A stretch of 42,913 nt of DNA from Vulcanimicrobiaceae bacterium (GTDB lineage: Bacteria; Vulcanimicrobiota; Vulcanimicrobiia; Vulcanimicrobiales; Vulcanimicrobiaceae). Position numbers: made by a program. Location of the stretch: contig JBHEMM010000020.1 in the NCBI GenBank assembly GCA_046262595.1, positions 501-43,413 on the forward strand, read 5' to 3'. This document shows positions 33,201 to 42,200 of the stretch, piece by piece. The first letter of the stretch is position 1. Each line of letters starts with the position of its first letter.

Positions 33201-36200
33201 TGAGCATTTCTTCGTACTTCGGATAAGCGGCGGCGTCTTTTGCACTGAACTTGGAGATTTCACTCACGTTGCGCTGCGGCGATCCGCCGAGCATCAAGTA
33301 CCGGCCGTCCTCAAAAGGTGAAAACGACGCCGGATCGCGCTCGAGCAGCTCGAATCCGTATGCGTCCAAGTGAAGGTCGCGTACGATCTCCGGCCGGAAC
33401 AGGCTGTTGACGTATGCCGCCGTGGAGACTTTAAAGCCCGGAAACGTTGCTTCTTCCGTGACGCAAGCGCCGCCGGCGATATAGCGCCGCTCCAACACGA
33501 GCACGTTCCATTTCGCTTTTGCCAGATAACAGGCCGTTACGAGGCCGTTGTGGCCGCCCCCGATGACGATCGCGTCGTAGGTTTTCATGGGCGCCACATA
33601 CTATTGAAGGCTCATGAAGTCCCTGGCGCGCTTCGGACTTGCCGCGATTCCCTCGATCATGCTTATTGCGGCACCTTTCTTGGTGAACGCCGATCGGCCG
33701 CGCGTGTTCGGGCTGCCGCTGCTTCTGGCGTGGATCGTCGCATGGGTGGTGCTCACGCCGTTCTTTCTCTTCGGCGCCGACCGCTTTCGCGAGGAACGAT
33801 GACCCCCGGCATTCAGGCAATCACGATCATCGCGGCCGTGGTTCTCGCCACGATCGGCTTCGCGCTTTACGCGGTACGCCGCTTCAAGATGGAGCCGCAG
33901 GAGTTTATCGTCGGCGGACGCTCGTTCGGCGCGCTGCTGCTGTGGATCTTGCTCGCGGGCGAGATTTATACGAGCTTCACGTTTTTGGGCGCCGCCGGCT
34001 ATGCGTACGGGCGGGGCGCGCCCGCATATTACATTATGGCGTACGGCACGGTGGGGTATACGATCGCGTACTTCTATTTGCCCGCAGTGTGGCGCATCGG
34101 CAAGCAGCGTAATCTGATGACATGGCCCGATTTTCTGTTCGACCGTTACGGAAGCAGAGCGCTCGCCGTTACCGTTGCGGTACTGCAGTTCTTCCTCGCG
34201 GTCCCCTACGTTACGCTGCAATTGAGCGGCCTGCAAACGATTTTAACGATCGCCGGATACTCGCAGTTCAACGCGACGGCCGACGTGGGCATCGCGTTTG
34301 TGCTGATGTCGCTTTTCGTGTTCACGGCCGGGCTGCGCGGTGCGGCCTGGGCAAGCGTCATCAAAGACGCGCTGGTTTTGATTGCCGTGCTGTTCGCCGG
34401 AATCTATCTGCCGCTGCATTTTTTCGGCTCGGCCGGCGCGATGTTCGATCGCGTCGCCGCCGCCCATCCGCATTGGCTTTGGCTGCACGCCGGCGGCGCC
34501 CCGTTCGGCACAAACTGGTACGTCTCGACGGTGCTCTTGACGAGCATCGGCTTTTTCATGGGACCGGCGAGCGCGCAATCGATCTTTTCGGCACGCAACG
34601 AGCAGTCCGTGCGGCGCAATATGATGCTCATGCCGATCTATCAACTCGTCATTATCTTCGTTTTACTCGCCGGCTTTACCGCGCTTGTCGTCACGCCCGG
34701 CCTCACGGGTAAGGCCGTCGATCAGTCGTTTCTGCTGCTGCTGCAGCATTATTTTCCGGCCTCGGTGCTCGGTTTCGTGGGCGCTGCCGGGTGCCTGGCG
34801 GCGCTTATCCCGGCTTCCGTGCTGCTTCTGGGCGCGGCCAGCATTTTTTCGAAAAACGTCATCGGGAACACGCGCTACGTGCGCGTGCTCGTGTTGGTTT
34901 GCGCCCTTCTGGCGCTCGTTTTGTGGCTGTTTGCGAGTGCGAATTTGGTGGATCTGCTCTTGTTCTACTACAACGGCATCACGCAGTTTGCGCCGGGTAT
35001 TCTGCTCGCACTGTGTTGGCGGCGCGTGAGCGCCTGGGGCGCCGGAGCGGGACTTGCCGCCGGCGAGCTCGTCGCGTTGTGGTTTCTGCACTCGACCTAT
35101 TCGACGAGCGGTCCGGCCGGTATCAATCCCGGCCTCCTCGCGCTAGCATGCAACGTCGCCGTGCTGGTTGCTGTCACGCTGGTTTTTCCGCGGGCGCAAA
35201 AGTTGCGGGCCGCGAACGACTCGCCCTGACACTTCGCCTCGACGCCGTCCGGATCTGCCGGCGGCTCCGCGCGGAACGGAATGTCGTCAACCGAGTCGAG
35301 CGGTTCGTAGCCGAGCGATCGCGCCCGGTCCAACGACCAAAACGCCGCGCTGTTGTTGGAAATTCCGTAAACGCACGTGTAGCTGACCGGCTCGTGTTCC
35401 AGCGCGGCAAGCAGCAACTGCGCCAGATCGCGCGGACTGATCCAGATCGCCCGGTCTATGTCGTACTGGGGGTGCGCCGCGACGTGCCCAATGCGCAGGC
35501 ACACCACCTCGAGACCGTACTTATCCGCATAGTGCCGCCCCAGCGCTTCGGCGAACACCTTGGAAACCGCGTAGAAGCTGTCGGGCCGCACGGGGGCCGA
35601 TTCGTCAATCGCAATCGCGCGCGGATAGAATCCCGTCACGTGACCGGTGCCCGCCAGCACCACGCGCCGCACGCCTTCAAGGCGCGCCGCTTCCAGCACG
35701 CTATACGTGGCGCGCATGTTGTGCTCGAGCAGACGGTCAAACGAGTTCTCTTTCGAAATCCCGCCCAGATGAACGACCGCACGCGCGCCCCGCATTGTTT
35801 TGCGCGCGGCGTCCACGCTGCGCAGGTCCGCGCGGATGAAGCGGTCTTCGCCTTTGGGGATTTTGAAAGGAACCGCATCGGTTAACCACAACGGCCCGAG
35901 CGCATCGCGCAGGCGATCTCCGACCAGACCAAAGACATTTCCGGCGGCGCCGGTTATCAGCACGGGTCCGCCGTCCGCTGCGGGCGCAGCAACTGCGCGG
36001 CGTTTCTGCACGAGCTCGCGCACAATGGCAACAATGCGCTGCGCGTCCGCGCGCTTGGGAATCCACAGCTGCCCGGGCGGTATGCGCGTCGCGCGGAAAA
36101 ACACAACAGTATTGAACAGGGCCCCGGCAACGTACGTTACGGTTGAGGCCAAAGCGGCGCCGGCCAAACCGAAGCGCGGCACGAGCGCAAAGCACGCCGC

Positions 36201-39200: not shown

Positions 39201-42200
39201 CATTCGCGTGTGGAGATCGCAGGCGTCGTACGTGGCAAAGCGCGCGTCGAACCCGCCCGCTTCCTGAACATACGCTTTACGGTATAAGGCGTTGCTCGTC
39301 GGTGCGAATGGGAAACGCGGATGCCGCAGCGAGCGGATAGGGTCGAGTCCGCCCATCAGATCGACGAACCGCGCCGCGGGCGTCGCCGATTGAAAACCCG
39401 TCGTTTTACCTGCTGCACCCAACGCGCCGGGTTCGCGCTCTGCGGCGCGCACGAGTGAGGCGAGCCAACCCCGCGAACACACGCAATCACTGTCGGTGAA
39501 CGCGATCCACGCGCCTGCAGCGTGCGCAATTCCGGTGTTTCGCGCCGCCGGCGCGCCGGCATTGCGCTGACGTATCACCTGTACGCCGCACGCTTTCGCG
39601 ATTTCCGCCGAATTGTCGGTGGACCCGTCGTCGACCACGATGATCTCGTACTGGTCTCTCGCAAGCGTTTGATACGCCAGCGAGCGCAGGCACTCTGCGA
39701 GCGTATCGGCGCCGTTGTATACCGGAATAACCACCGAAACGTTCATGCGCCGCCCCTGCGCACGTGCCACGCGCGCAAACCGAAGCCGAGCCAAAAGTTT
39801 TTGGTCCAGAGCGACTGGTAGCGCAGAAACTCCGCCCGCCGTTGGTCGAGGATGCCGAAAGCGCAGCCCGCGGCGGCAGCCGCTGGCGTGAGCGCGCGCG
39901 AAAGCAGGACACCGCACAACCGCAGGGCTTTCGCCGCGTCCCACTGCACTTCGCAGGGGTACATGCGGTAAAGATCGGCAACGCCGGCGCCGTAACTGCG
40001 CGCTTGGCGCCGCAACGCGGCGTCATCGGCGCGCGCGCGATGGTAGAGCACCGCATCCGCACAATAGACGACGCCCTCGCCGTACGCGCGCTGCAGGCGG
40101 TATGAAAAATCGACGTCTTCGCCCGTGAGCAGCGCTTCGTTCCAGCCGCCCACGGCGCGGGCCGCAGCAGCACGCACGGCCAAATTGAGCGAGGGAGCGA
40201 ACGGAAAAGGCTTGCGCGCGGCGGCAATCTGCGCATCGTATAGACCCGCAGCTTGGACGTAACGTTCCGCCGGTGTTTGCGGCGGATAACACAGCGTATG
40301 CCCTGAGACGAGCACCGTCTCGGGCTCGGCAAACGGCTTGACGATCTCGCTCAGCCACCGGCGGCTGGGCACCGTATCGGCATCGAGATGTACGACGATC
40401 GCGCCCTGCGCGGCACGCAAGCCGCAGTTTCTTGCTGCAGCCGGCCCCCGCCGGATCTCGTCGAGAACGCGCGCGCCCGATGCGTGCGCGAGCGCCTTCG
40501 TGCCGTCTGTCGAGCCGTTGTCCACGACGATCAGCTCGAAAGCCGGCGGCCGCGCCTGCGAGCGCAGCGCGCGAAGCGTTTCACCCAGCGTCGATTCCGC
40601 GTTCAACGCCGGGATAACGACCGAAACGTCCGTCATCGCAACGCATCCTCAATGCCGGCGAGCCATCCGGAGCTCCGGTAGGCATCTTGGCCGATTTCGA
40701 GGCGCACGCCGCGCATGCCGCGCAGCGCGGCCATCGTTTGCGTGAGCGTCCAGCGCGCAACCGGCGCATCGCACGGAAGCACAATTTGCCGCAGCAGCGC
40801 GGCCGCGCTTTGCGAGACCGTCATCGGCGCGGACCGGATGCCTGCGTGCGCTGCGGTGCGAGCAACTTCTACGATGTGCGTCGGCCGGGCGTGCGGCCGG
40901 GCTGCGCCGGGACGAACCCTATCGAGGTGAACGCGGCGCTTGTCCGTCCAGGCGGAGTAACGCGGCAGCGAAGCGAGGTCGCGTAAATCGAACCAGCGCC
41001 CTGTGGCCGGGTCTAAGTTAAACGTTTGCAGCAAAGAGCGCAGAACGGGCTTACCGCCTTCATTGCGCAGGAGCAGTTTATCATCCCCGAGCGTCGACCA
41101 CCCGTTTAAGACGAGCGCCGTCGTCAGCGTGCTTTTTCCGCCCCCCGATGCAGCGCACAGCAGCGCGCACACATCGCCCTTAACCACGGCGCCCGCATGC
41201 AGCGCCACGAAACCCTCGTTTCGCCAACCCGCGGTACAAATGAGCGAAAACACGTCTTCCATGTCGCCGACTTGCGGCTCGTCGAAAACCGTTTCCGGTG
41301 GAACGGAGATCGTCCAAACGTCTGTACCTGCAACGGTGGAACCGCGGGCGACGAAGCCGTACTGCGTATCGGCAACATACGAATCGCCCGTGCGGTCGAC
41401 CGTCATGTGCGCGCAGGAAACGAACGTTCCGCTTGCGCGCACACCCAGCGCCCGGCGTTCCAAGTGCACCTCGACGCGGCGCGTGCGCTCTCTCCACGTC
41501 CGGCTGAACAGCGAGACATAGTTGCAGGCGACGGCAGCGAGCTCGCCGTCGGCTGCGCTAATGCTCAGGTCCAACGGCCCGCAACTGCCGGTAATGCGCT
41601 CGACCGCGGCCAGCATGCTACTCGGCCAGCGGTATGCTGGGATCGAACGCGCTGGTTACGACGCTTTGCAGCGGTTCAGCGTGACGTTCGATGGTGGGCG
41701 CAACCCAAGGCGCCGCGTATGTGGCGACCTCGGGCGCGGCATCCTCAGTGGACGGCTCGAGCAAATTCTCCGCCGATAAGTGCGCGAGAAAGCTGCGGAC
41801 TTCGTCCTCGCCGCTCGCGCCCCACAGGATGCATTGCCGCACGATCCGTTCCGGCGACGCGCCGGAGATCTCGAACAACTGCACGATTGCCCATGCCGAC
41901 CGGTTGAGCGAATAAAAGTACTTGGTTTCAAGGTCCAGCAGAACGGCGCCGCCTTCGACGACCGTAGCAACAAGCGCGGGCCGCAAGGCAACGGCCGCGG
42001 CGCGTATATCCGTCCCGATCATAACTTTTCCCCTCCGTGCGAACACTATACGGCGGCGCCGCCGCAGCCAGCAAGCGCCGGGAAGGGAAGGTAGCGGTGC
42101 CGGGCGGCCTAACGCTTCGTACGGAATCCCGTGAAAAAGCAGGAAGCGCGCCTATCGGCCGGCTTCCTGCGTTCGTTTCTGCGTTTTTTTAGCGGTAAGA

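Follow-up and report, generated by a model that had tools for sequence, protein, structure and literature searches.

Gene organization

The window, i.e., the whole 42,913-nucleotide stretch of contig JBHEMM010000020.1 from a Vulcanimicrobiaceae bacterium, carries seven minus-strand genes headed by a small protein in which a RiPP recognition element (RRE) is fused to a leader-like segment and a putative core peptide (Table 1). The first-pass annotation had described a fusion of this kind at the head of a kinase, GT2, B2 and nucleotidyltransferase cassette, and this description is borne out. The intergenic gaps are 1, -4, -4, -13, 0 and 1 nt; the fusion gene heads a tightly coupled operon.

Table 1. 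Genes of the cassette and segments of the fusion protein, in positions of the window.
Feature	Position	Strand	Size and basis
RRE-leader-tail fusion gene	41618..42022	-	134 aa, ATG start at 42022; 115 homologues
RRE (PqqD-like) domain, residues about 10-91	41750..41995	-	PF05402; AF2 pLDDT about 95; TbiB1 matches
Variable linker, residues 92-105	41708..41749	-	High entropy; pLDDT 78 in block 91-100
Cis leader-like segment, W106-x2-P109-x-I111...P117-L118-Q119-x-V121-V122	41657..41707	-	Conservation and model
Putative core/acceptor peptide, residues 123-134 (T-S-A-F-D-P-S-I-P-L-A-E)	41621..41656	-	Conservation; boundary inferred from lasso numbering (PMC10368454, in excerpt)
HPrK/PEPCK-superfamily kinase	40633..41616	-	327 aa; TIGR04352 E 1.5e-10 (under cut-off); motif; fold
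GT2 glycosyltransferase a	39743..40636	-	297 aa; PF00535 E 2e-29
GT2 glycosyltransferase b	38865..39746	-	293 aa; PF00535 E 6e-36; GT2a paralogue
Lasso B2-type (transglutaminase-like) cysteine protease	38413..38877	-	About 154 aa; PF13471 E 3e-9, over cut-off
NTP_transf_5 nucleotidyltransferase	37300..38412	-	370 aa; PF14907 E 8e-15
Polysaccharide-flippase-like membrane domain fused to Azf-like NAD-dependent sugar dehydrogenase/epimerase	35097..37298	-	PF01943 E 1e-4 (under cut-off); PF01370 E 3e-20

The kinase assignment, attributed at first to a Walker motif, has a broader basis. H140, G160, K161, D178 and D179 are invariant in 54 sequences, the fold matches PEPCK and HPrK, and a profile search agrees; a PDB search with the single kinase sequence gave no match. 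Along the H-K-DD motif the intervals are 21 and 17 residues, as in BsfK. In the B2 protease C87 and H124 are present in 15/15 sequences, with 29.4 bits against the NF033537 cut-off of 33. The nucleotidyltransferase retains K104, D123 and D125 in 14/14. GT2a forms its own clade. In a joint complex prediction the two GT2 enzymes and the fusion protein scored 0.00 against a mark of 0.32, a value which carries no weight either way.

The last gene had been called a flippase-epimerase. Its 'epimerase' half is best matched by the Azf-type NAD sugar dehydrogenase NF041293 (E 7e-36, under cut-off). Among 20 loci of the phylum that are long enough, a hand count gave the flippase in 14 and the dehydrogenase half in 7; this gene is an accessory part.

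As annotated earlier, the cassette has no cyclase; a macrolactam cyclase, which would be a homologue of asparagine synthetase, was not found nearby either. An AsnB-like match was found in 0/86 loci with a single-sequence profile. The cassette also contains no radical SAM enzyme, no SpI-like (S26) leader peptidase and no separate precursor. A search of non-viral contigs for short stand-alone tails gave three short matches only, on contigs of 947-1653 bases. These are read as contig fragments, other partial matches sit at contig starts, and a stand-alone precursor was rejected.

The fusion protein

The N-terminal domain has the fold of the lasso RREs TbiB1 and FusB1. A domain search assigned PF05402 (PqqD) at E 6e-5, just over the cut-off; the profile of the fusion protein matched TbiB1 at E 1.7e-7 and Foldseek retrieved TbiB1 (5v1v) at E 1.5e-4. 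Two lasso features, RRE and [YW]xxPx[LIV] leader, are united in one polypeptide.

Among 115 homologues, query counted in, W106, P109, P117, L118, F126, D127, P128, P131 and E134 are identical in all. Position 111 of the WxxPx[IVLM] motif is I, V, L or M in 115/115, the tail ends in FDPxxPLxE, and the distance from the invariant Trp to the C-terminal Glu is 28 residues in every homologue. Averaged over alignment columns, the entropy comes to 0.39 bits at residues 123-134 and to 3.11 bits at linker residues 91-105. At 20 loci synonymous codons vary in the tail and all three stop codons are used; thus, the tail is conserved at the protein level.

The structural model agrees with an earlier impression of a confident leader and a loose core: residues 101-110 are modelled at a pLDDT of 94 and residues 121-134 at about 53, with a strand at 111-114 and a helix at 119-125. 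Motif, fold, pLDDT and predicted secondary structure together suggest that the RRE binds its own leader in cis, in which case every precursor would come with its adaptor.

A core beginning at Ser124 behind a leader Thr, as in the proposed 'PLQxxxT', was rejected as a general rule. The Thr occurs in only 49/115 homologues (Val in 47) and would be at -1, not -2, relative to such a core. Position 121 is Val in 54, Ile in 47, Leu in 14 and never Thr. In phosphorylated lasso precursors the numbering is Y-17/P-14/L-12 with Ile/Val at -2 (PMC10368454, in excerpt). By this analogy the boundary probably lies one residue earlier, with Val/Ile/Leu121 at -2 and T/V-SAFDPSIPLAE as the core.

The lasso-type RRE, leader and B2 protease bring to mind an orphan lasso or macrolactam pathway with its cyclase encoded elsewhere, and the genome does possess one full gene of the AsnB family; it belongs to a polysaccharide locus on a different contig. 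Yet 6 of 11 cassette genomes (incomplete MAGs) lack a long PF00733 match. Moreover, counted from a core start at 123, Asp is residue 5 and Glu residue 12, neither falls at 7-9, and the Glu is terminal, which leaves no tail to thread. We consider this explanation very improbable.

Distribution

In an even draw from the phylum 17 of 296 same-family genomes have the fusion gene; the 14 of 100 reported earlier came from a different sample. The cassette had been called mobile. This holds only in the sense of a patchy occurrence at changing sites: the surroundings are different in each of the four genomes of the genus. No element able to move the cassette, no tRNA and no convincing flanking repeat were seen, and a plasmid search with the window protein gave no match. 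GC content is 0.657, compared with 0.627 for the genome. The architecture recurs in many uncultured bacteria. It also extends to cultured Crinalium epipsammum PCC 9333, which has an LDP-type locus (pCRI9333.04), and a look-alike cluster of 950 members, with Cyanobacteriota commonest, is a lead only. Many loci sit among polysaccharide genes; neighbours include heptose, sulfotransferase, GT4, dehydrogenase, lactonase and ABC genes.

Comparison with known systems

The closest known system is that of the linear polyphosphorylated peptides (LPP, 2026) from Bacillota, with a discrete RRE, a separate variable precursor and an SpI-type peptidase (PMC13381572, in excerpt). According to the same excerpt it shares with the cassette an RRE, a kinase resembling HprK, an NTP transferase, a peptidase, a transporter, the lack of a cyclase and the polysaccharide context. 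It further shares a [Y/W]xxP leader and, 18 residues past the aromatic residue, a Ser which is the acceptor in LPPs; the LPP His at +8 corresponds to Gln (67) or His (45) in the fusion family. Unlike the excerpted LPP loci, the cassette combines RRE, leader and invariant core in one protein, uses a B2 peptidase and has dedicated GT2 paralogues in the operon.

Like the cassette, the Bsf and paeninodin/pseudomycoidin pathways have a B1-type RRE, B2, an H-G-K-DD kinase and a nucleotidyltransferase. They have Ile/Val at -2, as proposed here, and a phosphorylated Ser near the core N-terminus; PsmN transfers hexose onto phospho-Ser (PMC10368454 and PMC8498205, both in excerpt). The same excerpts describe a cyclase, an Asp/Glu for the ring at 7-9, and precursor and RRE encoded by separate genes, none of which the cassette has. 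The LPP and Bsf systems, close in gene set, had not been named in the first-pass annotation (PMC13381572, PMC10368454, in excerpt).

In HPr-rel-A (TIGR04352 kinase, TIGR04353 PqqD) a PqqD protein likewise adjoins an HprK-related kinase. However, the window kinase stays under the TIGR04352 cut-off (40.7 against 200) and its RRE has no TIGR04353 match; one relative with the tail, P0232, scores above that model's cut-off. A literature search for HPr-rel-A found no paper. The cofactor RiPPs mycofactocin and PQQ resemble the cassette in a core that is invariant across phyla and in nearby dehydrogenases, and the GT2s come closest to MftF. The cassette differs by its fused precursor and missing radical SAM enzyme, and MftF, the best named model for GT2a, scores 147 and 156 on the two GT2s against a cut-off of 280. 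Fosfazinomycin assembly also employs a YxxP peptide, an RRE, kinases and a nucleotidyltransferase by which a non-peptide group is attached to the scaffold peptide, yet needs an asparagine-synthetase-like enzyme, phosphonate genes and a separate 22-mer precursor (PMC13622209, in excerpt).

The open-access literature searched, on fused precursors, carriers and scaffolds, cyanobacterial contexts and clusters without a cyclase, describes no natural RRE-leader-core fusion, and the tail motifs led to unrelated papers only; the data supplements to RRE-Finder and to the LPP study may list such proteins. Relative to this literature the fusion is new.

A proposed self-presenting precursor

The small protein is encoded together with enzymes that add sugar and phosphate; its probable role is either to give rise to a peptide bearing sugar or to act as carrier of a sugar chain. 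With a probability of roughly 0.5 we regard the fusion protein as the self-presenting precursor of a linear phospho-glycopeptide, similar to an LPP/Bsf pathway without cyclase. The RRE would hold its own WxxPxI leader in cis. The kinase would phosphorylate the tail, most likely at Ser124, judged from the spacing to LppA Ser3 and BsfA Ser3; NTP_transf_5 and the GT2 pair may next add a sugar or sugar-phosphate, by analogy with PsmN. B2 would cleave after residue 122, Val121 being -2, and release a linear 12-residue phospho-glycopeptide which a flippase-like or ABC transporter may pass to the envelope.

The fixed distance from the Trp to the terminus, the protein-level conservation of the tail, the lasso-RRE fold, the confidently modelled leader, the loose core and the BsfK-like kinase spacing support this pathway. 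Position 124 is Ser in 106, Thr in 7 and Asn in 2 homologues, and Ser124 is the likely phospho-site, as the LPP phospho-Ser is also 18 residues past the aromatic residue. Ser at +18, kinase and B2 also occur together. W-type loci have the Ser in 63/65, an adjacent kinase in 55/57 and B2 in 27/29 (loci of at least 7 kb), compared with 7/21, 3/13 and 0/4 for non-W loci. Since the loci are related, this co-variation amounts to about two or three events, not dozens.

Evidence from related families

Among related fusions the C-terminal decapeptide persists where B2 is missing; most of them have no kinase next to them, and some no Ser/Thr at all. A subfamily which keeps the xFDPxxP[LI]xE tail, an invariance partly built into the search pattern, has B2 in 0/5 loci of at least 5 kb. 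Past position +9, 13 of 86 tails are devoid of Ser/Thr; three of these adjoin a kinase match (L039, L040, L042), and the L042 kinase keeps the full motif. The second copies L023 and L026 lack B2. A peptidase swap to SpI in these two was dropped as a candidate, the S26-like domain being without catalytic Ser and His. LDP-type fusions have Asp at +18; of 10 loci none has B2, 8 have the kinase and 9 GT2. All of this speaks against the phospho-glycopeptide, as do the core, invariant here and variable in LPPs, and the cost of one RRE per peptide for a secreted product. Because the decapeptide is kept in such relatives, a cut-out phosphopeptide alone cannot explain the conservation of the tail. The linear phospho- or glycopeptide predicted earlier remains the best single reading.

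What persists in the wider superfamily, and this is a new observation, are Asp-Pro and GT2/NTP_transf_5; Ser, kinase and B2 come and go. Asp-Pro is common to SAFDP (115/115), PFDP (Asp 21/21, Pro 20/21) and LDP (22/22) tails, the latter two sets having been chosen by their tails. HHalign aligns FDP with LDP at 99.6%, although the spacing to the leader motif differs by three residues. Long loci contain GT2 in 33/33 and NTP_transf_5 in 31/33, B2 in 27/33. These data, together with the sugar-related neighbourhood, are consistent with a protein that acts as carrier or primer. Its covalent attachment site, either the Asp in Asp-Pro or the Glu at the terminus, would bear a glycan built by GT2 and NTP_transf_5 and linked as acyl-phosphate, ester or phosphodiester; acyl-phosphates are labile, as are Asp-Pro bonds. 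The glycan might be passed to the envelope or the protein stay attached, and Ser phosphorylation and B2 cleavage would be add-ons of the window's subfamily. FzmU provides a precedent for a nucleotidyltransferase that couples a non-nucleotide group to a scaffold peptide (PMC13622209, in excerpt), whereas a literature search gave no precedent for Asp as a target of GT2 or HPrK-like enzymes. In addition, Ser124, kinase and intact B2 are nearly fixed in the window's subfamily. We rate a carrier as clearly the less likely function, yet one to be taken seriously.

The extension of this idea is somewhat more doubtful still. The fusion protein might be the founding example of a widespread glycan-assembly carrier, common to SAFDP, PFDP and LDP families from Vulcanimicrobiota to cyanobacteria. 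A self-occupied RRE would present Asp-Pro or the terminal Glu, an HPrK-like kinase or the nucleotidyltransferase would activate it, and GT2s would load sugars, with proteolysis optional.

Possibly the tail is not a substrate at all. Docking peptides are often invariant and flexible, as is this Pro-rich hydrophobic tail with its free terminal Glu in the model. The decapeptide would then dock enzymes which modify polysaccharide or lipid-linked sugars, in line with the missing separate precursor and the polysaccharide surroundings, while the cis leader stabilizes or locks the RRE. LppB is insoluble without its leader (PMC13381572, in excerpt), so a cis leader could be structural. Docking, however, leaves the catalytic Cys-His B2 protease of W-type loci unexplained, as well as the co-variation of Ser at +18, kinase and B2 and the proposed lasso-like -2 register. 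We consider it unlikely, more so than either form of the carrier.

Implications

What LPPs, paeninodins and their NTP transferases do in polysaccharide loci is an open question (PMC13381572, in excerpt). Here, a substrate candidate of one fixed sequence is built into the RRE and shares a compact operon with glycosyltransferases of its own; this makes the missing sugar steps directly testable. Of PF05402 proteins 21% exceed the discrete size and have no other domain (PMC12710340). A natural RRE-leader-core fusion would explain why precursor searches beside many long PqqD proteins have failed. If the widespread carrier were true, envelope glycans or a sugar cofactor would be assembled by a logic resembling that of acyl carriers.

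Architecture and Conservation of the Fusion Protein

The fusion protein and its cassette are a real, well-conserved feature. Residues 10-91 of the fusion protein are modeled at a pLDDT of about 95 and match the lasso RREs TbiB1 and FusB1. Across 115 homologues, query included, the linker (91-105) is variable at 3.11 bits. It is followed by a leader-like stretch (106-122) and by residues 123-134, which are nearly fixed (0.39 bits). Without exception (115/115), the terminal Glu lies exactly 28 residues past the invariant Trp. This word-based search could be biased toward tail-bearing proteins. 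A genome search offers a cross-check with less bias: there, 28 of the 29 strong matches extend to the final position of the model (one row is the unpublished genome G344, on which no other result depends). The tail codons of 20 loci differ synonymously and all three stop codons occur, which means that selection acts on the peptide. Invariant cores are known from mycofactocin and PQQ.

Coordinates of the cassette, its neighbors, and other loci (G000, own genome; L, compared loci)
Feature	Location	Strand	Remarks
Seven-gene cassette	window 35097-42022	minus	134-aa PqqD protein, kinase, two GT2s, B2-type protease, NTP_transf_5 enzyme, flippase-like + NAD-binding fusion; intergenic gaps 1, -4, -4, -13, 0, 1 nt
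Fusion gene	window 41618-42022	minus	RRE, linker, WxxP leader, tail
Zinc-finger gene (TIGR04272)	window 42189-42506	minus	CxxC-x17-CxxC; immediately upstream of cassette
DUF3311 + sodium:solute symporter (MctP-like)	window 33614-35229	plus	convergent; symporter ORF overlaps final 130 nt of flippase-dehydrogenase gene
Second, LPP-like cluster (L016)	G000:C16:9650-15117		short discrete YxxP precursor, two HPrK-like kinases, discrete RRE, ABC transporter, fusion of S26 peptidase and NTP_transf_5, catalytic Ser and His present; no cyclase seen
Another adjacent HPrK-like kinase pair	G000:C32:16654-18263
Third PqqD gene (L017)	G000:C1:74716-74901		discrete, beside ribosomal-protein-like ORF; no evident precursor
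Orphan RRE in G160	L029:13019-13366
Second copies in G262 and G306 (L023 and L026)	L023:8843-18490		fusion gene, kinase, one GT2, no B2; behind dead S26-like-NTP_transf_5 fusion; neighbors GmhA, GmhB, sugar-1-phosphate nucleotidyltransferase, sulfotransferase, ABC genes
B2 fused to NTP_transf_5	L079:13213-14976
Two F390-synthetase-like AMP ligases	L005:16501-19518		facing cassette with five GT2s
PMT_2 membrane glycosyltransferase	L074:8049-9578		between fusion gene and kinase

Leader, Core and Cassette Enzymes

The first-pass annotation ended the leader at Thr123 and started the core at Ser124. As a rule this does not hold: 49 of the 115 homologues have Thr at position 123 and 47 have Val. Because lasso numbering runs Tyr-17/Pro-14/Leu-12 (excerpts of PMC10368454), position 121 becomes the -2 residue. 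It is Val in 54, Ile in 47 and Leu in 14 homologues, which agrees with the Ile/Val(-2) found in BsfA and other phosphorylated lasso precursors (same excerpts). By this spacing the core would comprise 12 residues and begin at 123. Position 124, 18 residues past Trp, is Ser in 106, Thr in seven and Asn in two homologues. The phosphorylated Ser3 of LppA also lies 18 residues past its Tyr-16 (PMC13381572, in part) and probably corresponds to Ser124, whereas Ser3 of BsfA is at +19.

All chemistry of the cassette is predicted. The kinase (pLDDT 93.6; matching PEPCK and HPr kinase folds) keeps H140, G160, K161, D178 and D179 in 54/54 aligned sequences. Its His-Lys-Asp spacing is that of BsfK, yet BsfK G163 is replaced by Ala155. 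Likewise kept are Cys87 and His124 of the B2 protease (15/15) and K104, D123 and D125 of the nucleotidyltransferase (14/14). The GT2s are paralogues of two clades; their best named model is MftF, with a score far below its cut-off. The flippase-dehydrogenase gene is accessory: by hand count the flippase occurs in 14 and the dehydrogenase half, nearest to Azf-type sugar dehydrogenases, in seven of 20 same-phylum loci with room.

The cassette had been described as cyclase-less, and this is borne out: an AsnB-like gene turned up neither in 86 loci (single-sequence profile) nor among 99 + 71 neighboring ORFs selected for Pfam scans. A long PF00733 match is absent from six of 11 carrier genomes, which are incomplete MAGs; the own genome has one full AsnB, on another contig inside a polysaccharide locus. 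That a cyclase acts in trans is very improbable.

Distribution

A screen of 400 further genomes from the phylum found the fusion gene in 26 (17/296 of the same family, 9/30 of a second family). Records of related loci name Eremiobacterota/Vulcanimicrobiota, Chloroflexia, Anaerolineales, Binatia and Gemmatimonadales. Four same-genus genomes show four different sets of flanks, in line with the mobility proposed at first, yet neither a tRNA nor a flanking repeat was observed. In G160 a deletion, counted as a single event, took the tail end and all enzymes. The orphan RRE has a decayed motif and has lost otherwise invariant residues; the congener G254 carries the cassette at this site, and the flanks equal those of the intact L020. 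In 25 related loci the zinc-finger gene was not seen next to the cassette.

The Wider Family

Further tailed RREs came from a profile search that used no word index. Asp is present in 21/21 picked PFDP-type and Asp-Pro in 22/22 picked LDP-type proteins, and HHalign aligned the FDP and LDP motifs to each other. Scanning metagenomes for the PFDP pattern yielded 70 loci, whose FDP-P-E invariance is built into that pattern. We scored 86 loci, leaving out repeats or near-repeats (L004, L021, L024, L028, L036, L037), three edge fragments, L029, which is truncated, and five loci that have another type of tail or a discrete RRE.

Since the loci are related, the contrasts between locus types stand for few independent events. 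W-type loci have Ser at +18 in 63/65 and a kinase next in 55/57; those of at least 7 kb (n = 29) have B2 in 27, NTP_transf_5 in 27 and GT2 in 29. Non-W loci (n = 21) have Asn (8), Ser (7), His (4), Lys (1) or Thr (1) at +18 and a kinase next in 3/13. The four long ones all have NTP_transf_5 and GT2, none B2; Gfo/Idh/MocA and 2-hydroxyacid dehydrogenases occur instead. Thirteen of the 86 loci have tails without any Ser/Thr past +9, and three of these adjoin a kinase match. Ten LDP-type loci contain a kinase (8), GT2 (9) and NTP_transf_5 (5) and neither B2 nor AsnB; one of them lies on a plasmid of Crinalium epipsammum, a cultured organism, and includes an Azf-like dehydrogenase as in the window.

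Proteins P0161, P0162, P0173, P0175 and P0178 have two or three tandem RREs, with YxxP-like segments after the RREs and an LDP tail after the last. Among further tailed RREs (P0176, P0232, P0224, P0254, P0257) some have short tails ending [CS]GE (P0232 passes TIGR04353), others a YxxP leader and then an unrelated, variable or Cys-containing tail.

Proposed Function and Relation to Known Systems

In the window's subfamily Ser at +18, kinase and intact B2 travel together. This favors, with a probability of about 0.5, a self-presenting precursor: the fusion protein would present its own tail, which would be phosphorylated, glycosylated and cut to a linear 12-mer. The linear phospho- or glycopeptide first predicted finds support within this subfamily, but Ser and protease are not constant across the superfamily. 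Constant are Asp-Pro, GT2 and mostly NTP_transf_5, which favors either a carrier protein with a glycan on Asp or the terminal Glu of the tail, possible if unlikely, or a docking tail, which is quite improbable. Phosphorylated Ser and a glycan-bearing Asp/Glu are compatible. Asp-Pro bonds are labile. For the self-presenting precursor, glycosylation by NTP_transf_5 and the GT2s is suggested by analogy with PsmN (PMC8498205, excerpts).

The LPP (PMC13381572) and Bsf (PMC10368454) systems work much like the cassette's gene set. Unlike lasso pathways the cassette has neither cyclase nor ring residue, and unlike LPPs, described from Bacillota (PMC13381572, in part), it lacks an SpI peptidase, a discrete RRE and a variable core. 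Excerpts of the RRE-Finder papers (PMC7470986, PMC12710340) list RRE-enzyme fusions, note long PF05402 proteins as unexplained, and describe no RRE-precursor fusion. A natural one was not found in the literature outside subscription papers and supplements. The fusion protein might, though this is doubtful, represent a novel type of glycan carrier; the cassette is a new variation on RRE/kinase/nucleotidyltransferase RiPP-like systems.
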